From positions 14,142 to 78,141 of the forward strand of contig NZ_JBLFEN010000005.1 of NCBI RefSeq assembly GCF_047345485.1: 64,000 nucleotides of DNA, read 5' to 3'. The DNA is from Hyunsoonleella sp. 2307UL5-6 (GTDB taxonomy: Bacteria > Bacteroidota > Bacteroidia > Flavobacteriales > Flavobacteriaceae). Under the pieces are notes generated by a model. The model saw only the letters and a program-made list of their open reading frames with translations, was not told the DNA's origin and made no database searches. A program made the translations under genes and the position numbers. Shown piece by piece: positions 4,285 to 56,470 of the stretch; position 1 is the stretch's first letter; each line of letters opens with the position of its first letter.

Positions 4285-6081
4285 TTAATCATTCAACTTC
4301 AAAACCGCCATAAACGCCTGTTGAGGTATCTCTACATTACCCACTTGACGCATACGTTTTTTACCTTTTTTCTGCTTTTCAAGAAGCTTACGCTTACGCG
4401 AAATATCACCACCATAACATTTAGCTGTTACGTCTTTACGTAAGGCTTTTACTGTTTCTCTAGAAATAATTTTTGCCCCAATAGCCGCTTGAATAGGAAT
4501 ATCAAATTGCTGACGCGGAATTAACTCTTTCAACTTTTCACACATCTTTTTACCTATATACTGCGCGTTATCGGCGTGTATTAATGCCGAAAGCGCATCC
4601 ACAGATTGTGCATTTAGTAAAATATCTAAACGTACTAATTTTGATGGTTTCATCCCGATTGGATGGTAATCAAAAGAAGCGTAGCCTTTAGAAACCGTTT
4701 TTAATCTGTCATAAAAATCAAAAACAATTTCGGCTAGTGGCATTTCAAATGTTAATTCTACACGCTCAGTAGTTAAATAGGTTTGATTGATAATAAGACC
4801 TCGTTTTTCAATACAAAGTGACATCACATTACCCACAAAGTCTGATTTTGTAATAATAGTCGCTTTAATAAAAGGCTCTTCTACCCGGTTTAAGGTTGAA
4901 GGTTCTGGTAAATCAGATGGGTTATTTACAATGATGATTTCGTCTGGAGTTTTATTGGTAAACGCGTGATAGGAAACGTTAGGCACCGTAGTAATCACCG
5001 TCATATCAAACTCGCGTTCTAAACGTTCTTGGATAATTTCCATATGAAGCATCCCCAAGAATCCACAACGAAACCCAAAGCCTAACGCTGCAGAACTTTC
5101 TGGTTGAAACACTAAAGAGGCATCATTTAATTGTAACTTCTCCATAGAGGCACGAAGCTCTTCGTAATCCTCAGTATCCACGGGATAAATTCCAGCAAAA
5201 ACCATGGGTTTTACATCCTCAAAACCTTCAACAATATTAGTGGTTGGTTTTTCAAAATCGGTAATAGTATCTCCAACTTTTACTTCTTTAGCCGTTTTTA
5301 TACCTGTAATTAAATAGCCTACATCACCAGTTTTTACGCTTTGTTTTGCAACTTGGTTTAATTTTAAAGTACCAACCTCATCTGCGTAATATTCTTTATC
5401 TGTAGCAACAAATTTAATTTTTTGTCCTTTTTTAATTTCACCATTAAATACTCTAAAATAGGTTTCTATACCACGAAAGGTATTGTAAACCGAATCAAAA
5501 ATTAAAGCTTGTAATGGCGCATTTGGATCGCCTTCTGGTGCCGGCACACGTTCTATAATGGCTTTTAAAATATTATCCACACCAAAACCTGTTTTTCCAC
5601 TTGCGTGAATCACTTCTTCGGGATCACAACCTAATAAATCTACAATATCATCGGTAACCTCTTCAGGGTTGGCACTTGGTAAATCTACTTTATTCAATAC
5701 AGGAATTATTTCCAAATCGTTTTCTAAAGCTAAATATAAGTTTGAAATCGTTTGCGCTTGTATACTTTGTGCAGCATCTACAATCAACAGCGCCCCTTCA
5801 CAAGCCGCAATAGAACGGGATACTTCATAAGAGAAATCTACGTGTCCTGGTGTATCAATTAAGTTTAAAACATACTTTTCACCTTCAAACTCGTAATCCA
5901 TCTGGATGGCGTGCGACTTGATGGTAATACCACGTTCGCGCTCCAAATCCATACTATCTAACAGTTGCGCTTGTTGCTCTCTGGCGGTTACCGAACCTGT
6001 GTAATCCAACAAACGGTCTGCAAGTGTACTTTTTCCGTGATCAATATGTGCAATAATGCAAAAATTCCTGATGTTCTTCAT
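4285..6081 (-). CDS. lepA: translation elongation factor 4 (LepA)
   Basis: [25 protein letters not shown] GTPase G1 motif, DTPGHVDF G3 motif, and a 598-aa length. The six-frame ORF has a 32-codon upstream in-frame extension, judged non-coding. Confidence 0.92.
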
Positions 6082-8889: not shown

Positions 8890-9006
8890 TCTCATACTAT
8901 CTTAATTGTTTGAACTTATAAAGTTTTGAGATGTATATATTATTATTTAAAGGAACTGAGTTATGCAATACTTTAAAATAAATCTCGCTTAAAAATATGA
9001 TATTCA

Positions 9007-20349: not shown

Positions 20350-20448
20350 ATAAAAAAGGGAGTTATGTTGTATTTACACAAATGTAAGTGATTACTGTAA
20401 GATATAAAACTGACTATTATATTGATTACCAACGTTAGCAAGCACGCC

Positions 20449-20513
20449 CCGCGAGAAGGATTGAACGGCATGTTTGAAATCCCCGACGCAGGAGGGATTG
20501 AGTAGTGAAAGCC
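20449..20513. repeat. family-B repeat, partial copy, inverted relative to 56396-56470
   Basis: ggattgaacggcatgtttgaaatccccgacgcaggagggattgagtagtgaaagcc matches the reverse complement of 56400-56455 with 3 mismatches. Confidence 0.8.
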
Positions 20514-22225: not shown

Positions 22226-22639
22226 ATGAACAAAATAGAACATATTGGCATTGCGGTAAAACATTTAAAAGATGCTAATACCTTATTTGAAAAGCTATTT
22301 GGCATACCAAATTATAAAGTTGAGGAAGTGGAAAGCGAAGGCGTGAATACCTCGTTTTTTAAAGTTGGAGACACTAAAATTGAATTGTTAGAGGCAACCG
22401 ATGATGATAGCCCTATTGCAAAATTTATTAAAAAGAAGGGAGAAGGTATTCACCATATTGCTTTTGATGTTGATGATATAGAGGCTGAAATAGAGCGATT
22501 AACCAAAGAAGGGTTTACGGTAATACATAAAACTCCAAAAAAAGGCGCAGATAATAAATTGGTGGCGTTTTTACACCCAAAATCTACAAATGGTGTTTTA
22601 ATTGAATTATGCCAAGAATTACCATTGCCATCAAAATAA
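22226..22639 (+). CDS. mce: methylmalonyl-CoA epimerase (VOC/glyoxalase family)
   Basis: 137 aa with the metal ligand pattern HIGIAV...E...HHIAF...E of methylmalonyl-CoA epimerases. Confidence 0.75.
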   Translation: MNKIEHIGIAVKHLKDANTLFEKLFGIPNYKVEEVESEGVNTSFFKVGDTKIELLEATDDDSPIAKFIKKKGEGIHHIAFDVDDIEAEIERLTKEGFTVIHKTPKKGADNKLVAFLHPKSTNGVLIELCQELPLPSK

Positions 22640-22772
22640 TAGTACGGTTTAAGTATAAAGTTAAATACAGTGGGTTTTGACGTTTCTTTTAAACAAAATT
22701 TCTTGTAGAGTTTTAAGAAATATAGTAATATTGCACACTCTTATTTATAAGAGCATTACATTTCGCGTAATA

Positions 22773-22834
22773 GGGCCTATAACTCAGTTGGTTACCTGCC
22801 TACCTGCCGGTTAGGCAGGCAGGGAGTATCTGAC
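22773..22834 (+). pseudogene. truncated duplicate of the 5' 32 nt of the downstream tRNA(CAT), with a 29-nt family-B hairpin (cctgcctacctgccggttaggcaggcagg) inserted in the D-loop
   Basis: GGGCCTATAACTCAGTTGGTTA + hairpin + GAGTATCTGAC is identical to tRNA nt 1-22 and 22-32 at 23083-23114. Homology ends inside the anticodon loop. Confidence 0.8.
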
Positions 22835-22847
22835 GAAACATATAAAG

Positions 22848-23105
22848 ATGTTTGTTTACGTTCTTAGAAGTGATAAAGATGGAAGGTTTTATGTTGGTAT
22901 TACCGCAACTATTGAAAAGCGGTTAAAAGAACATAATGCTGGAAAAACAAAAAGTACTAAAGGATATCGTCCTTGGAAATTGTTTTTCTTTGAAAGTTTT
23001 GATACAAGACAAGAAGCTAGAAAGCGAGAAAAGTATTTAAAAACTGGATATGGAAAACAATGGATAAAAGAAAAATATAATAGGGCCTATAACTCAGTTG
23101 GTTAG
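22848..23105 (+). CDS. small GIY-YIG-domain nuclease (homing-endonuclease-like). The last 8 codons and the stop are encoded by the 5' end of the tRNA gene.
   Basis: YVYVLRSDKDGRFYVGITATIEKRLKEHN...YRPWKLFFFESFDTRQEARKREKYLK carries the GIY...YIG, Arg and Glu core residues. The ORF ends NRAYNSVG-TAG inside the tRNA D-arm. Confidence 0.85.
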   Translation: MFVYVLRSDKDGRFYVGITATIEKRLKEHNAGKTKSTKGYRPWKLFFFESFDTRQEARKREKYLKTGYGKQWIKEKYNRAYNSVG

Positions 23106-23156
23106 AGTATCTGACTCATAATCAGAAAGTCCCTGGTTCGAGCCCAGGTGGGCCCA
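23083..23156 (+). tRNA. tRNA with CAT anticodon (elongator tRNA-Met or lysidine-modified tRNA-Ile2)
   Basis: 74 nt GGGCCTATAACTCAGTTGGTTAGAGTATCTGACTCATAATCAGAAAGTCCCTGGTTCGAGCCCAGGTGGGCCCA. All four stems pair. TTCGAGC T-loop. CCA is not encoded. Confidence 0.85.
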
Positions 23157-23181
23157 CTTTAAAACCCTAAACTTTTTTAGT

Positions 23182-23658
23182 TTGGGGTTTTTTAATTCTT
23201 ACATCAAAAAACAAGTAAAGTTAATTATAGTTATGATTAAAAAGCTAAAAACTACTTTAACTATTATAATCTGTATCTTATATTTAGGCGCATTACTACA
23301 AGAATGTTATTTGGTAGATGGTCATTCTTCTATTGGTTCGTTTGGCGTTTTTGCATTGCTTTTAGGATGGATGCAGTTTGATACTGTAGCACTAGTTTGG
23401 TTAGCTAACCCTTTGTTTGTAGTAAGTTTACTGTTATTTGTTTTTTCAAAAAAGTTGAATTTGGGTTTGATATTAAGTGGTATTGCTTCAATTTTAGCAA
23501 TTTATTTTTTGAATGTAACGGAGGTGCTAAGAGACGAATCGGGATATGTAGGTAAAATAACAGGTTACTTACTAGGGTATTGGATGTGGGTTTCAGCAAA
23601 TGTACTTTGTTTCTTTTCTTTCGTCTTGAAGAAATGGCTTAATAAGAAACAGCAGTAG
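23182..23658 (+). CDS. hypothetical integral membrane protein
   Basis: 158 aa with five predicted TM helices. Confidence 0.5.
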   Translation: MGFFNSYIKKQVKLIIVMIKKLKTTLTIIICILYLGALLQECYLVDGHSSIGSFGVFALLLGWMQFDTVALVWLANPLFVVSLLLFVFSKKLNLGLILSGIASILAIYFLNVTEVLRDESGYVGKITGYLLGYWMWVSANVLCFFSFVLKKWLNKKQQ

Positions 23659-23901: not shown

Positions 23902-24624
23902 ATGAAGCATCAAAATTTAAATAGAGAAGCTAGATATGGTGTGCCTGAAGCAGATCAAATTCTTTACAACAGGCATTACGCATTAGGGTATTCCTACTAT
24001 TTTAGGCAAGCCAAATGGGCACTTGAAATAGTAGACCCAGATATGACTCAAGTAGTAAGGAAAGATTATTTTAGATCAGATTATCGCATACCTGAAGAGT
24101 TTAGAGCAGATAAAGACGTGTATGCTAATTCTGGGTACAATAGAGGACATCTTGTGGCTAGCGCTAACCAAATTGAAACCGAAATACAGAATAGTGAGAC
24201 GTTTTTATTATCTAATATGTGCCCCCAAGTTCCAGAATTTAATAGTGGTATATGGAAACGACTAGAAGATGCCGTGAGACATTTAGACAGTGATAAAAAA
24301 GTATTTGAAACTTATGTTATTTCAGGGCCGTTGTTTTATTTTGATCAAGATGTTGTAATGATAGGAGACGATAATCCTAATATAAAAGTGTCTTTACCAA
24401 TACCACATGCTTTTTTTAAATCTGTACTTACTGAAAGAAATACTGGCACTTTTAATATGTGGTCTTTTATAATTCCTAATAAAAAAACGAGTGCGCCTTT
24501 AGACGACTTTTTAGTAGAAACCTCTAAAGTTGAGAAAATTTCTGGTTTGTTTTTATGGGATACATTAAAAGGCACAAAAATTATGAATAAAAAGAATAGA
24601 ATTAAAAAGATGTGGAGGCTTTAG
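23902..24624 (+). CDS. DNA/RNA non-specific endonuclease (NUC / Serratia-nuclease family), no signal peptide
   Basis: GYNRGHLVASANQ (DRGH-type active-site motif) and an SNMCPQ...N metal site. 240 aa. Confidence 0.8.
   Translation: MKHQNLNREARYGVPEADQILYNRHYALGYSYYFRQAKWALEIVDPDMTQVVRKDYFRSDYRIPEEFRADKDVYANSGYNRGHLVASANQIETEIQNSETFLLSNMCPQVPEFNSGIWKRLEDAVRHLDSDKKVFETYVISGPLFYFDQDVVMIGDDNPNIKVSLPIPHAFFKSVLTERNTGTFNMWSFIIPNKKTSAPLDDFLVETSKVEKISGLFLWDTLKGTKIMNKKNRIKKMWRL
24599..24624 (+). repeat. 26-bp direct repeat gaattaaaaagatgtggaggctttag (copy 1, the 3' end of the nuclease gene)
   Basis: Identical copy at 25450-25475. The pair flanks a segment containing a single 147-aa ORF. Confidence 0.85.
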
Positions 24625-24958
24625 CTCCATCAAAACAAGATATTTTTAAATGTGTGTGTTTAGTAAAATTATTACTATTAGTGGAGGGTTTTGCCTATAA
24701 TAAAGTTTATAAATCACAATAAAATAATTTCAAATATTATATTTACTTAATTCTAATATTAAAACTATATAAGTCATCAAAAAATCTATTTATTATTTAA
24801 GATCAATCTTTATAATTTTATTATTATCCCTCACTTACAGTTCTTGTAATTCGCCAAAGTACAGTTATTTTTTTCATGAGGGTAAGTATGTAAACTTCAA
24901 TAAAGGTAAGTGGCTACTCAATCAATCTCAGTCAAACTCTAAAATTTATGATACCGAA

Positions 24959-34118: not shown

Positions 34119-35504
34119 ATGAAAGTTTTTCAATTTATATCAATATACATTTTATATTTTACTGCTAGTTTCTCTTTTAGTCAAGAACATATAAGTTCGT
34201 GTAATACTAAGTTATCTATTTTTCATGAGTTGGTAAAATCAAAAAATTATGATGCAGCCTACGAATCTTGGTATTATGTAACAAAAAATTGCCCTAAATT
34301 AAGTATTGCAGTTTATAGTGATGGCGAAAAAATACTAAAGCATAAAATAAAAACATCTAAAGATTCTGAACAGAAAGAGTTTATAAATACATTGCTAAAC
34401 TTATGGCAAAAACGCATTGAATATTTTCCTAGCAAAACACCAAGAGGATTATATGGATCCAAAGGTTGTCAATTAATGTTTGATCAAAAAAAGCTACTTC
34501 AAAAAAAGAATACTGAATTATTTAAATGTTTTAATACAGCCTATAAAACTGATAATGATACATTTACTAATCCTAAAAGTTTATACACTTATTTTTCGTT
34601 AACTGTAGATTTATATAATGATGGAAAAAAAACAATAAAAAAGGTATTTACTAATTATGATATTATTGTTGAAAAAATAGAAGAAGAAGTAAAAAATTAT
34701 TCTGAAAAGTTAAATACTTTAAGTACTAGAGAAGATTCTGGTATTGTATTATCTAAAAAAGAATTAAAACTTAAAAGTGTATATCAAAACTACTTAAAAA
34801 ACTACACGCTTATTTCTAAAAATATTGATGCTAAACTAGGTGTAATTGCAGATTGTAAAAATTTAATTCCACTATACCATAAGGAGTTTGATAACTATAA
34901 AGAAGATGCTGTTTGGTTAAAGCGTGCTGTAAATAGAATGTATCAAAAAAAGTGTACAGAAGCACCGTTATACGAAAAACTTGTAAAAGCTTACGACGCA
35001 GTGGCACCCTCAGCAGATACCAAATATTTTGTAGCCACCATATTAATAAAAAAAGAAAAACTTAAAGAAGCAGAAAAATATTTAAAAGCATCATATGATT
35101 TAGAAACGGACAGCTTTAAAAAATCTAAAAGAGCTTACAGTATTGGTTTAATACTTAAAACATTAAACAACTACTCTAAGGCACGCCAATATTTTAAAAA
35201 ATCGTTACAACATAATCCTTCAAACGGTAAACCACATATAGCTATAGCATCTATGTATGCAGCTAGTGCTAAAAATTGTGGCGAGAGTAATTTTAATAAA
35301 AGAGCAGTATATTGGTTAGCTGCTAAAGAAGCAAGAAAAGCGTTAAAAATTAATCCGTCTATAAAAGAAGAAGTGAGTAAATATGTATCTAGATATATGG
35401 CTTTAGCACCATCAAAACAAGATATTTTTAAATGTGCGTGTTCTGGTAAAATTATCACTATAGGTTGCTGGATTAACGACAAAATTACAGTTCCCAAACT
35501 GTAA
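34119..35504 (+). CDS. secreted hypothetical protein, 461 aa
   Basis: N-terminal signal peptide. Lys-rich helical repeats. The C-terminal 35 codons share a nucleotide module with 24618-24700. Confidence 0.55.
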   Translation: MKVFQFISIYILYFTASFSFSQEHISSCNTKLSIFHELVKSKNYDAAYESWYYVTKNCPKLSIAVYSDGEKILKHKIKTSKDSEQKEFINTLLNLWQKRIEYFPSKTPRGLYGSKGCQLMFDQKKLLQKKNTELFKCFNTAYKTDNDTFTNPKSLYTYFSLTVDLYNDGKKTIKKVFTNYDIIVEKIEEEVKNYSEKLNTLSTREDSGIVLSKKELKLKSVYQNYLKNYTLISKNIDAKLGVIADCKNLIPLYHKEFDNYKEDAVWLKRAVNRMYQKKCTEAPLYEKLVKAYDAVAPSADTKYFVATILIKKEKLKEAEKYLKASYDLETDSFKKSKRAYSIGLILKTLNNYSKARQYFKKSLQHNPSNGKPHIAIASMYAASAKNCGESNFNKRAVYWLAAKEARKALKINPSIKEEVSKYVSRYMALAPSKQDIFKCACSGKIITIGCWINDKITVPKL

Positions 35505-41792: not shown

Positions 41793-41821
41793 CTCCGGAA
41801 ATTTTTTTCGGAGTTTTTTTT
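41793..41821 (+). terminator. rho-independent terminator after accC
   Basis: ctccggaaatttttttcggag hairpin followed by a T8 run. Confidence 0.7.
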
Positions 41822-41874
41822 GGCGCCTGCCTACCTGCGGTATAGCAGGCAGGTTACCCAAGGGTCGGGCTTTC
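41821..41874. repeat. family-B repeat (hairpin gcctgcctacctgcggtatagcaggcagg + gggtcgggctttc)
   Basis: About 85% identical to 56345-56400. The same hairpin occurs in the pseudo-tRNA at 22795-22823. Confidence 0.8.
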
Positions 41875-41897
41875 CGCTATATCTTTTTACGAAGCAG

Positions 41898-41918
41898 TCT
41901 CGAACTTGTTTCGGGATC
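41898..41918. repeat. family-C element tctcgaacttgtttcgggatc
   Basis: Matches 14632-14651. Confidence 0.7.
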
Positions 41919-42208
41919 TCAGTAAGTCATTAACAATTATCCTTAAACATAAAATTCTGATATTTAAAGCTTCGCAAAAAAGATGCCGCTGCAATCCCTA
42001 ACACAATTATCTGCTAGATTATCGGTTTGAAATCTAAGTGACTTTATTTTTGGAGAGTTTCGTTTAACGTTTATGTATATGGAAAGTTGCGTGTTTGAGT
42101 GCGAGGATTTTCCGAAGGAAAATCAGAAGCTAGCAAACAAAGCAACTAACATTGATTAAGCACAAAACAGCAATTTTTTATACACTGTGTTGTGTGTAGT
42201 TTTTTATT

Positions 42209-56344: not shown

Positions 56345-56470
56345 TGGCGCCTGCCTACCTGCGGCATTGCAGGCAGGTTAACCACAAGGGGTCGGGCTTT
56401 CACTACTCAATCCCTACTTCGTCGGGGATTTCAAACATGCCGTTCAATCCCTAACGCGGGTTTACCTGCC
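56345..56470. repeat. family-B repeat, longest copy (hairpin gcctgcctacctgcggcattgcaggcagg + gggtcgggctttc + ggatttcaaacatgccgttcaatcc module)
   Basis: The 5' half matches 41821-41874. The 3' half matches the reverse complement of 20449-20513. Confidence 0.8.

Follow-up and report, generated by a model that had tools for sequence, protein, structure and literature searches.

The locus described here lies on the forward strand of a 64-kb window (the whole stretch of DNA that was analysed) and consists of a small nuclease gene enclosed by two copies of one tRNA gene, the downstream copy being complete (Table 1). The complete copy is the one tRNA called by ARAGORN across the window (tRNA-Met(CAT), 23083-23157), and Rfam model RF00005 matches 23083-23156 from end to end (70.4 bits, E=2.7e-15), which bears out the tRNA(CAT) of the first-pass annotation. 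The exact upstream copy of its 5′ part that had been reported is present too, but its extent is 33 nt and not 32. Nucleotides 1-22 of this partial copy (psi), that is, the acceptor 5′ strand, the D-stem 5′ strand and the D-loop, lie at the ancestral tRNA position; the 22-mer 22773-22794 occurs at just two sites in the window (0 expected from shuffles). Nucleotides 23-33 correspond to the D-stem 3′ strand, the anticodon-stem 5′ strand and the first loop base. Between the two parts lies a GC-rich hairpin (DNA fold -8.9 kcal/mol), a clean insertion that left no target duplication and separates the D-loop A from the G with which the D-stem 3′ strand begins; the junction it splits in psi is whole in the intact tRNA. 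The pentanucleotide TAATA directly precedes both psi and the intact tRNA, and the junction GAGTATCTGAC|GAA.. at the end of psi is also found in Seonamhaeicola (L161) and Aestuariivivens (L001). As had been proposed, the nuclease ORF ends in tRNA sequence; the overlap, however, is 23 nt (23083-23105, tRNA nt 1-23: two bases of AGG, six codons and TAG) and not 27 nt or eight codons.

Table 1. Features of the locus at 22693-23191 of the window
Feature	Position	Strand	Remarks
Conserved promoter-like block of the ancestral tRNA(CAT) gene (putative)	22693..22745	+	..ttcttgtagagttttaag.aatatagtaatattgcacactct..
Partial tRNA copy (psi), tRNA nt 1-22	22773..22794	+	exact 22-mer repeat of 23083-23104
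GC-rich palindrome/hairpin, 29 nt	22795..22823	+	CCTGCCTACCTGCCGGTTAGGCAGGCAGG; CCTGCC..GGCAGG family
Partial tRNA copy continued, tRNA nt 23-33	22824..22834	+	GAGTATCTGAC; identical to 23105-23115
Spacer/5′ leader of the nuclease ORF, 13 nt	22835..22847	+	77% identity to L161
Putative minimal GIY-YIG nuclease gene, 85 aa, Slx1/UPF0213 type	22848..23105	+	PF01541
Intact regenerated tRNA, anticodon CAT	23083..23156	+	ARAGORN and Rfam; Met or Ile2
Intrinsic-terminator-like hairpin and T-run, 3′ of tRNA	23161..23191	+	

The promoter-like block, now 5′ of psi, may still act as a promoter; the Bacteroidetes-type -7 motif TAnnTTTG is absent from 22640-23082, and a sigma-70 promoter scan gave nothing above shuffles. 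No terminator-like site was found across 22745-23156, the sole one from the block onward being that behind the tRNA, which is consistent with a single psi-hairpin-ORF-tRNA transcript.

The nuclease and its relatives

The assignment of the 85-aa product to the GIY-YIG proteins is borne out by PF01541 (E=6.2e-19; 68.5 bits against a cut-off of 22.6; residues 2-77), and its Pfam matches are confined to GIY-YIG, T5orf172, MUG113 and SegE. Among 34 aligned sequences (~63% mean column identity), Y4, Y15, H29 and E61 show no variation, R25 being conserved to at least 90%; we take these five to be the counterparts of the I-TevI catalytic residues. The AF2 model (pLDDT 94.7; E2-8, E14-19, H22-30, E43-50, H54-65, H67-83) follows the beta-beta-alpha-beta-alpha(-alpha) pattern of the GIY-YIG superfamily, and the top Foldseek matches of this predicted fold are the UPF0213 proteins BH0048 and EF2693, Slx1 and the I-TevI catalytic domain. 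Judged by sequence and model, the protein is a minimal Slx1/UPF0213-type GIY-YIG protein and a putative nuclease. It is closest to the UPF0213/Slx1 folds and not to I-TevI (catalytic domain 1ln0), and it shares with UPF0213 (YhbQ/YazA, PDB 1ywl, 1zg2) and Slx1, its best matches in sequence and structure, the minimal GIY-YIG core. Identity is about 32-45% only; further, UPF0213 and Slx1 proteins are not known as tRNA-gene-linked or mobile, and Slx1 depends on Slx4 and has a RING/PHD-type domain which is lacking here. Slx1 acts on branched or stem-loop DNA, which it cuts at junctions, and by analogy such an activity would fit palindromes located at cloverleaf junctions.

In both Pfam and the AF2 model the catalytic domain fills all 85 aa, with no separate DNA-binding domain. 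PADLOC returned only fragments of ~30 residues (E at least 0.002), none of them a hit on a known defence system; NCBIfam and PHROGs gave weak, partial homing-endonuclease-like matches only and no named subfamily. The family is large (5,732 protein clusters at 50% identity, E<=1e-10); a tblastn search of phages and plasmids did not find it and yielded only ~40%-identical YazA/UPF0213-like matches.

Recurrence of the layout at tRNA genes

With the nuclease protein profile 80 genome loci were retrieved for comparison. In 54 of these a same-strand tRNA gene overlaps the ORF stop or begins at most 12 nt away, and in 39 of the 80 the stop lies inside the tRNA. The order tRNA nt 1-21/22 (exact), palindrome, tRNA resuming, ORF, intact tRNA was seen in about 50 loci, and this three-part layout occurs across orders at more than ten tRNA species, those for Arg (TCT, ACG, CCT, TCG, CCG), Met, Lys, Asn, Phe, Gly and Ala being occupied. 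The same hairpin-marked layout is thus present at many tRNA genes across Bacteroidota, a recurrence which supports the earlier proposal of a small nuclease-encoding element that sits in a tRNA gene and regenerates a complete tRNA. The anticodon loop, which had been put forward as the insertion point, is not fixed in the family: elsewhere the partial copy ends between ~nt 26 and ~nt 72, the part behind the palindrome measuring 4 to ~50 nt. The fixed points are instead the junction of the ORF end with the tRNA and the palindrome positions. Two arrangements exist, one with the partial 5′ copy upstream and the intact tRNA downstream (type A, as in the window), the other its mirror image, with the intact tRNA and its flank upstream and a disrupted 3′ copy and the same flank downstream (type B). 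Some loci have tandem (L058) or decayed units (L002), others additional disrupted copies of the tRNA (L012, L046). The segment behind the palindrome invariably matches the local tRNA, including loci in which a switch of tRNA type seems to have taken place; where the window and Seonamhaeicola differ (G3/T3), the partial copy follows the local tRNA in each.

The palindrome sits exactly at the D-loop junction ..TA|GA.. in 57 of the 80 loci, whichever tRNA is occupied, and 36 of 61 palindrome copies match the canonical 20-mer CCTGCCTGCCGGCAGGCAGG exactly. The positions recorded (7|8, 9|10, 12|13, 17|18, 21|22, 26|27, 31|32, 35|36, 38|39, 52|53 and 56|57) are mostly loop/linker sites or helix ends, and some partial copies hold several palindromes. 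Palindrome density is 0.65/kb near nuclease ORFs against 0.011/kb elsewhere in the same loci (~60-fold), with four strict-motif palindromes in 356 kb away from the ORFs and none in 314 kb of GIY-less loci. A second nuclease subfamily, 34% identical, occurs in the same layout at tRNA-Met, -Leu and -Phe; its palindrome, TCCCGATAGCTATCGGGA, is a different one, which replaces ~5 nt and is not a clean insertion. The palindrome variant tracks the protein clade and not the tRNA type; L002, at Arg-TCT, has the variant of the window's clade. Mismatches in the palindromes (G:T against A:C, 14 against 9) do not discriminate between a role as RNA and one as DNA.

By its constant position in 57 of the 80 loci, the ~60-fold enrichment and the co-variation of palindrome and subfamily, the hairpin is a conserved component and the hallmark of the family. 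That a 29-nt hairpin interrupts the D-loop, as first described, is confirmed; that it belongs to an independently inserted repeat ("family B") is not upheld, and independent insertion of a MITE was rejected as the main reading on the same grounds of position, enrichment and subfamily-specific palindromes.

Two related solo hairpins occur elsewhere in the window (41822-41853 and 56346-56377), with more than three mismatches to the one at 22795-22823. They adjoin Flavo-1-type repeats and have no tRNA or GIY gene beside them.

Empty sites and the age of the cassette

Empty sites, for which a search of related genomes had been suggested, are common there: the neighbouring gene is followed directly by the tRNA. 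Among 80 metagenome loci retrieved with the VOC protein, 49 have tRNA-Met(CAT) about 50-260 nt 3′ of VOC; in none of the 80 does a palindrome or a family-1 GIY ORF lie 3′ of VOC, L084 having the second subfamily downstream of the tRNA. In L138 and L153 the tRNA follows VOC at 650 nt, simply with an extra reverse-strand gene between. The uninterrupted tRNA of the empty-site loci is preceded by the same promoter-like block, and psi starts 134 nt after VOC, in the place that is taken in those genomes, 50-165 nt after VOC, by the tRNA itself. Thirteen syntenic loci, the window included, carry the cassette between VOC and tRNA(CAT). This conserved site is polymorphic for presence and absence of the cassette, a feature also of free-standing homing endonuclease genes.

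In comparison with Seonamhaeicola (L161), the nuclease ORF has a pS of 0.23 (dS 0.27), while the adjacent host genes reach 0.63-0.64 (VOC), 0.78 (rbfA) and 0.74 (ftsX); the lower value of the ORF (binomial P=6e-8) derives from ~44 synonymous sites only. With a dN/dS of 0.29 the ORF is under purifying selection. Nucleotide identity is 77-100% from psi through the tRNA end and 49-55% in the non-coding DNA flanking it, the step coinciding with the psi start and the tRNA end; the promoter-like block is 85% identical, against 50-55% in the non-coding DNA around it. The synonymous difference of 0.23 in the ORF, against 0.63-0.78 in its neighbours, argues for lateral spread, and by these sequence comparisons the cassette is shown to be much younger than its flanks and to have arrived laterally at the same site.

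An ordinary, non-mobile host GIY-YIG gene flanked by a decayed tandem tRNA duplication, with an unrelated hairpin in the dead copy, would account for the ftsX-rbfA-VOC-cassette order kept in several Flavobacteriaceae genera, for purifying selection on the ORF (dN/dS 0.29, window against L161) and for the tandem tRNA-Met genes without any ORF in L117. It is contradicted by recurrence of the layout at more than ten tRNA species across orders, by the same palindrome junction in 57 of the 80 loci, by the separate palindrome of the second subfamily, by empty sites as the common state, by an ORF far younger than its flanks, and by tandem and degenerate units; this explanation is scarcely credible.

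The same dN/dS would suit a domesticated function, in which the nuclease and the psi-hairpin leader form a host-beneficial module, co-transcribed with the tRNA and no longer mobile, for instance in tRNA-gene maintenance or in control of tRNA processing through alternative pairing of the psi 5′ half with the tRNA 3′ half. Identity of the partial copy to the local tRNA, the G3/T3 difference included, and absence of the family from the phages and plasmids searched speak for such a module. In the predicted precursor fold psi nt 1-8 can pair with the 3′ acceptor strand of the tRNA, but because the two 5′ halves are identical the fold does not discriminate and is no evidence. Against a module of this kind stand the patchy distribution, in which empty sites are frequent, the decayed and tandem copies, and the low age of the ORF relative to its flanks; the varying length behind the palindrome (4 to ~50 nt) makes a defined RNA structure unlikely. 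We hold domestication to be very doubtful.

Possible routes of insertion

Positions 22773-23156 probably represent a copy of a widespread, selfish, homing-like cassette of Bacteroidota, a minimal nuclease gene nested in a tRNA gene. The best explanation for its structure is that it uses tRNA sequence as recombination arms, the steps of cutting and insertion being inferred. The mobile-element reading of the first-pass annotation was thus broadly right and in need of revision. In the ancestral state a VOC/glyoxalase gene would have been followed within about 50-165 nt by the promoter and tRNA(CAT); now the promoter-like block precedes the palindrome-split tRNA nt 1-33, 13 nt, the nuclease ORF and the complete tRNA. 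Transcription from the tRNA promoter would run through psi, hairpin, ORF and tRNA and end at the tRNA terminator. With the ORF inside the tRNA transcript, the host would therefore be unable to silence it without loss of the tRNA; cleavage by RNase P would take away the stop codon of the ORF and so limit its expression. The nuclease may nick or cut the DNA of tRNA genes where a single strand and a helix of the cloverleaf adjoin, for the most part at A21|G22, and the break would be repaired from a cassette-bearing copy, with tRNA nt 1-22 as the left arm and the full tRNA as the right. With arms made of tRNA, the event would not depend on the flanking genes, and a working tRNA would always be restored. 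The palindrome may be the cognate site of the nuclease, may destroy the target in the redundant copy, or both.

An example of a free-standing GIY-YIG homing endonuclease gene is phage T4 SegB (PMC2330249) in the tRNA gene cluster. With genes of this kind the cassette shares a nuclease ORF beside or in conserved genes, tRNA genes included, presence or absence at a given site, lateral spread in which the flanks are co-converted, and a host gene which stays functional. It differs in that the protein has only 85 aa and neither a linker nor a DNA-binding domain, in being chromosomal in Bacteroidota and not phage-borne, and in its duplicated target fragment and cognate palindrome. We know of no Seg or Mob gene with such a fragment or palindrome. 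Several points weigh against a homing-like model, the mechanism of which is deduced wholly from sequence. Characterised GIY-YIG homing endonucleases have the DNA-binding domain which is missing here, and site choice would need recognition of structure or a partner. The presumed target is retained in the intact tRNA, and avoidance of self-cleavage is not accounted for; neither does simple homing account for the duplication of the 5′ part (type A) or of the 3′ part with flank (type B). A segment behind the palindrome that always equals the local tRNA needs gene conversion or duplication at insertion. Further, the low synonymous divergence rests on ~44 sites, the solo palindromes at 41822 and 56346 lie beside Flavo-1-type repeats away from tRNA and GIY genes, and the search of phages and plasmids gave no vehicle for the transfer.

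A full-text literature search gave no description of this nuclease-tRNA-palindrome architecture. It is possible, and we suggest so tentatively, that it represents an undescribed class of structure-guided mobile DNA, in which a minimal Slx1-like GIY-YIG nuclease and its cognate short palindrome act on the DNA cloverleaf of tRNA genes where single strand meets helix, chiefly at A21|G22. Two tRNA copies would enclose the ORF, one of them always kept by the host as a working gene and the spare one marked with palindromes, CCTGCCTGCCGGCAGGCAGG or TCCCGATAGCTATCGGGA depending on the subfamily. If confirmed, the cassette would be a very compact selfish element (about 310 bp) which solves the invasion of an essential gene by rebuilding it behind itself and borrows the promoter of the host gene, whose first bases even serve as its stop codon. 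With the stop codon inside the tRNA, a coupling of tRNA processing and translation becomes testable. A cassette family of this size shapes tRNA loci throughout a major bacterial phylum and bears on how a GIY-YIG nuclease without a DNA-binding domain finds its target, possibly via DNA structure, on the spread of short GC-rich palindromes, on genome annotation (read-through ORFs, tRNA fragments and contig breaks at these repeats) and possibly on programmable or structure-directed DNA cutting.

The palindromes also invite comparison with REP/RAYT systems (REPINs), in which a single nuclease-type gene is likewise associated with short GC-rich cognate palindromes that co-vary with its clade. By this account the GIY-YIG protein would mobilise its palindrome, which would enter folded tRNA-gene DNA where single strand and helix meet and would last only in redundant tRNA copies, the ORF between the copies having a safe harbour. 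Palindromes at many cloverleaf junctions, mostly loop/linker sites or helix ends, several of them in some partial copies, the clean insertion without target duplication, an own palindrome for each nuclease subfamily, solo palindromes at other sites of the window and closest folds among structure-specific nucleases all fit. We nevertheless consider it unlikely. The enzyme is a hydrolytic GIY-YIG nuclease, for which no strand-transfer chemistry is known, and the Pfam matches include no HUH Y1 transposase. In the loci and the window covered, palindromes cluster in tRNA copies beside the gene and are not dispersed in hundreds: flanking and co-variation are REPIN-like, but dispersal amounts to two related solo copies in 64 kb and 0.011/kb away from ORFs (four strict-motif copies in 356 kb). 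The origin of the ORF and of the tRNA duplication is not accounted for, and the palindromes of the second subfamily replace ~5 nt where clean insertion would be expected.

The duplication itself would follow readily from Campbell-type integration, a small circular or linear DNA with the ORF and a palindrome-marked tRNA fragment entering by a single crossover in shared tRNA sequence. The crossover would duplicate the fragment, only outcomes with one intact tRNA would survive, and the nuclease would linearise the DNA or stimulate the process at the palindrome. Types A and B both arise naturally in this way, as do the variable extent of the duplicated segment, direct repeats and tandem arrays, and excision between the 22-nt repeats would give back the empty site. 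In islands and prophages that integrate at tRNA genes an intact tRNA is likewise regenerated, with a partial direct repeat at the other end; they, however, use a tyrosine or serine recombinase, of which there is none between the repeats here (GIY-YIG is the sole ORF), their repeat is the 3′ part of the tRNA (attL/attR) and not the 5′ part (nt 1-33), and they span kilobases, compared with ~0.3 kb for the cassette, whose partial copy is in addition split by a palindrome. Campbell-type integration is quite improbable: the cassette encodes no recombinase, 21-22 nt is very short for a RecA-type crossover, a circular form is without supporting evidence, and it accounts neither for a carried fragment that always equals the local tRNA nor for palindromes at several cloverleaf junctions.

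Group I introns, some with GIY-YIG genes, also have tRNA genes as targets, in bacteria the anticodon loop, and psi in the window ends at the first anticodon-loop base. Rfam recognised only the tRNA at the locus and detected no intron family in 22600-23300 at E<=10 or in the whole window at the gathering threshold. In contrast to such introns, the cassette has no ribozyme, and its functional tRNA is uninterrupted and restored by duplication, not by splicing.

Anatomy of the cassette and its recurrence in Bacteroidota

The layout proposed in the first-pass annotation, that is, a GIY-YIG ORF between an intact tRNA gene and an upstream partial copy of that tRNA (psi) which is split by a hairpin, was recovered by ARAGORN, Rfam, Pfam and repeat search; two lengths had to be amended, as the upstream exact copy is present and comprises 33 nt instead of 32, and the ORF does end inside the tRNA, the overlap being 23 nt (the final 23 nt of the ORF, TAG stop included, are tRNA nt 1–23) instead of 27. 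ARAGORN finds one tRNA in the 64-kb window, and the 22-mer formed by its nt 1–22 occurs there twice, with zero occurrences expected from shuffles. The window tRNA has C4:G69, C5:G68 and an Ile-like D-arm; judged by the TilS determinants, it may be tRNA-Ile2 (lysidine) and not elongator tRNA-Met.

Features of the cassette and its flanks
Feature	Position	Strand	Remark
Promoter-like block	22693-22745	+	same as in VOC-tRNA loci; now upstream of psi
psi, first segment	22773-22794	+	exact repeat of tRNA nt 1-22, ~310 nt upstream of tRNA
Hairpin, 29 nt, CCTGCCTACCTGCCGGTTAGGCAGGCAGG	22795-22823	+	directly after psi nt 1-22
psi, second segment	22824-22834	+	repeats tRNA nt 23-33
GIY-YIG ORF, 85 aa	22848-23105	+	Pfam GIY-YIG, E=6e-19
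tRNA, anticodon CAT	23083-23156	+	ARAGORN; Rfam tRNA 70.4 bits, full model covered
Terminator-like site	23161-23191	+	sole such site following, after tRNA

The protein consists of the catalytic core alone; its AF2 model (pLDDT 94.7) has a predicted beta-beta-alpha-beta-alpha-alpha fold, the GIY-YIG motif residues are conserved, and the closest solved relatives are, in this order, UPF0213 EF2693 and BH0048, the structure-specific endonuclease Slx1, and the catalytic domain of I-TevI. No defence system matched it, and phage and plasmid collections yielded only distant YazA-like genes, not the family itself, for which a search at E<=1e-10 gave 5,732 cluster representatives. Among its hundreds of close relatives (78–90 aa) many have visibly tRNA-encoded C-termini (..RSYNSVG, ..WSRSSAG, ..GPIAQLVRAPDS), and in some the C-terminus reads through into YLPAGRQGA, the hairpin in translation. 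At such cassettes gene callers report read-through or N-terminally extended ORFs (e.g. the homologues P0015, P0033 and P0107).

The design is recurrent, not a one-off: a protein-profile search with one genome per species gave 80 loci, nearly all in Bacteroidota (Flavobacteriaceae, Saprospiraceae, Chitinophagaceae, Bacteroidales, Sphingobacteriaceae). In 54 of these a same-strand tRNA lies over the ORF stop or begins within 12 nt of it; the stop is inside the tRNA in 39, with overlap lengths that repeat (23 nt at 13 loci, 10 nt at 18, 1 nt at 3). The occupied tRNAs are chiefly Arg (five anticodons) and Met, further Lys, Asn, Phe, Gly and Ala. About 50 of the 80 have the window layout, an exact copy of local tRNA nt 1–21/22, a GC-rich palindrome, resumed tRNA sequence of varying length, a short spacer, the ORF and the intact tRNA, and in every case the segment after the palindrome is identical to the local tRNA. 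Other loci have a mirror arrangement with the intact tRNA upstream (often with its terminator), then the ORF, then a dead tRNA copy, which is 5′-truncated or full-length and carries 1–3 palindromes; in some of these (L021, L034, L046, L065, L041) the tRNA 3′ flank is duplicated as well. There are also loci with tandem units (L058), with decayed units (L002) or with additional ORF-less tRNA copies that bear a palindrome (L012); constant in all variants is an ORF between two local tRNA copies, one intact and one disrupted. Contig ends and N-gaps fall inside the palindrome/tRNA repeats (L001 3258-3285, L012 3506-3606, L059 2761-2785), and thus the cassettes break short-read assemblies.

The palindrome as a module component

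The hairpin had been regarded as a separate repeat-family insertion, a view which did not hold. It sits exactly at the D-loop/D-stem junction (..GGATA|GAGC.., ..GGTTA|GAGT..) in 57 of the 80 loci; 36 of 61 copies, drawn from different orders, match the canonical 20-mer of this first family, CCTGCCTGCCGGCAGGCAGG, without a mismatch; and strict-motif palindromes number 0.65/kb within 400 nt of the ORFs versus 0.011/kb in the rest of the same loci, with none in 314 kb of related loci lacking the ORF. This makes the hairpin an integral component of the module with a specific position. Across tRNA copies it is found at 7|8, 9|10, 12|13, 17|18, 21|22 (the dominant position), 26|27, 31|32, 35|36, 38|39, 52|53 and 56|57, most of which are cloverleaf loop or linker sites or helix ends, and the CCTGCC-type insertions are clean, that is, free of target duplication.

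A second nuclease subfamily came to light at L084 (2993-3800), a metagenome locus anchored by the VOC/glyoxalase gene: here a 34%-identical GIY-YIG protein is found in mirror arrangement at the same tRNA-Met, and TTCCGATAATTATCGGAA and TCCCGATAGTTATCGGGA mark the dead tRNA copies in place of the family-1 palindrome. Homologues of this ORF (among L162-L169) lie at tRNA-Met, tRNA-Leu(GAG) and tRNA-Phe; their palindromes, of the family seen at L084 (TCCCGATAGCTATCGGGA, TGCCGAAAGCTTTCGGCA), occupy D-, anticodon- and T-loops of dead copies, and where the arrangement is mirrored, the ORF end joins the tRNA at G22. Within family 1 the palindrome varies with the protein clade, not with the tRNA type; thus the Arg-TCT locus L002 has the CCTGCCTACCTGC..GCAGGCAGG form common to the window clade. 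Since the second subfamily has its own palindrome and the family-1 variant tracks the protein, nuclease and palindrome travel and diverge as a pair.

Empty sites and lateral spread

At 11 of the genome loci, and likewise in Seonamhaeicola sp. ML3, the gene order ftsX-rbfA-VOC is syntenic with the cassette. Empty sites, as anticipated in the first-pass annotation, exist: a VOC-protein scan of metagenomes gave 80 loci, in 49 of which tRNA-Met(CAT) follows ~50–260 nt after VOC (mostly 50–165 nt), and in none of the 80 did the 1.2 kb after VOC contain a palindrome or a family-1 ORF; L084, with its second-subfamily ORF downstream of the tRNA, is among them. Upstream of the tRNA in VOC-tRNA loci is a conserved promoter-like block (..ttcttgtagagttttaaaatatgtagtaatattgcac..). 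As this block precedes psi in the window, and psi begins 134 nt after VOC, the expected tRNA position, psi occupies the ancestral tRNA position behind the putative native promoter, with the ORF and the working tRNA downstream; psi, hairpin, ORF and tRNA, followed by the sole terminator-like site, would naturally be co-transcribed. One locus without nuclease gene or palindrome (L117, 2970-3144) has tRNA-Met(CAT) twice in tandem after VOC, with 25 nt between the two genes; plain tandem duplication of this tRNA thus occurs too.

Divergence between the window and Seonamhaeicola
Region	Identity	pS
ftsX		0.74
rbfA		0.78
VOC		0.63-0.64
Leader upstream of psi	50%	
psi nt 1-22	95%	
Palindrome	90%	
psi nt 23-33	100%	
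Spacer	77%	
GIY ORF (pS: codons 1-77)	89%	0.23 (dS 0.27, dN/dS 0.29)
tRNA	97%	
Downstream of tRNA	49%	

Synonymous differences of the cassette-adjacent genes are at or near saturation, and for the GIY ORF a count of 10 or fewer differences at 44 sites, with 63% expected, has P=6e-8; its dN/dS of 0.29 indicates selection; Aestuariivivens pairs show the same trend (0.41–0.42 vs 0.66–0.81). The rise in nucleotide identity falls exactly at the start of psi, the drop at the tRNA end. The low pS and these border steps show that the cassette arrived at this site in these lineages after host divergence, likely by recombination in the tRNA-derived arms or by exchange of the tRNA locus as a whole. The left junction GAGTATCTGAC|GAA is common to the window, Seonamhaeicola and Aestuariivivens, and nt 3 of psi agrees with the respective tRNA (window G3, pairing with C70; Seonamhaeicola T3, pairing with A70). 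Further, the protein tree mixes tRNA types, which points to occasional switches of target; the window clade groups with Arg-TCT/ACG types, not with the main Met cluster of Flavobacteriaceae, which occupies the same locus. In Seonamhaeicola sp. ML3 (CP096884.1; L161) a tyrosine integrase gene (4811-6004; Arm-DNA-bind_5, Phage_integrase) lies downstream of the tRNA in question, ~1.5 kb away, and a conventional integrative element may reside there on the tRNA 3′ side.

Proposed mode of mobility, and other repeats

We lean slightly towards a homing-like selfish cassette, with a mechanism deduced from the arrangement of the loci. Without a DNA-binding domain the nuclease would probably recognise structure, acting where single strand meets helix in tRNA-gene DNA, or on its own palindrome; the cassette-bearing copy would serve as repair template. 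With tRNA nt 1–22 as left arm and the complete tRNA as right arm, the host would regain a working tRNA every time, and the ORF would come under the tRNA promoter. Cleavage by RNase P would separate the ORF from its stop codon and may hold expression low.

Free-standing GIY-YIG homing endonuclease genes are closest in working; the window protein lacks the DNA-binding domain by which they are recognised, and the cassette additionally has a target duplication and a cognate palindrome, neither of which such genes are known to possess. Integrase-type tRNA islands resemble the cassette solely in that the tRNA is regenerated; the cassette encodes no recombinase, and what it duplicates is the 5′ part of the tRNA, not the 3′ part. 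A competing explanation is Campbell-type integration of a circular DNA that bears part of a tRNA. Another is a REP/RAYT-like system of nuclease plus palindrome, the enzyme/palindrome pairing being the sole likeness; a third is a domesticated module. A chance tandem tRNA remnant is effectively excluded, and a group I intron was rejected, as Rfam finds only the tRNA at the locus. In a non-exhaustive search of the full-text literature no published description of this architecture was found. We rate the cassette among GIY-YIG selfish elements, as a variant with added features; with a lower yet appreciable probability it forms a class of its own, mobile DNA guided by structure.

The window holds further repeats. 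A solo hairpin of the CCTGCCTACCTGC..GCAGGCAGG type (41822-41853), with no tRNA or GIY-YIG gene nearby, directly adjoins a Flavo-1 RNA (41859-42006, minus strand; RF01705, 49.9 bits); a second (56346-56377) is 94% identical to the stretch 41813-41860 and is followed by a 66-nt repeat (56395-56460; inverted copy, 92%, at 20448-20513), Flavo-1-like yet below the Rfam threshold. The hairpin family AGACCTCACAGGTTTTnAAAACCTGTGAGGTCT has 7 copies of ~35–55 nt each (at 9004, 14523, 16501, 44984, 46842, 48646 and 49980), most followed by T-runs; the copies resemble intergenic repeats of a REP-like or terminator-like kind. Finally, a 44-nt direct repeat (GGCTTTAGC.CCATCAAAACAAGATATTTTTAAATGTG.GTGTT; 24617-24660 and 35399-35442) is 95% identical over a distance of 10.8 kb.
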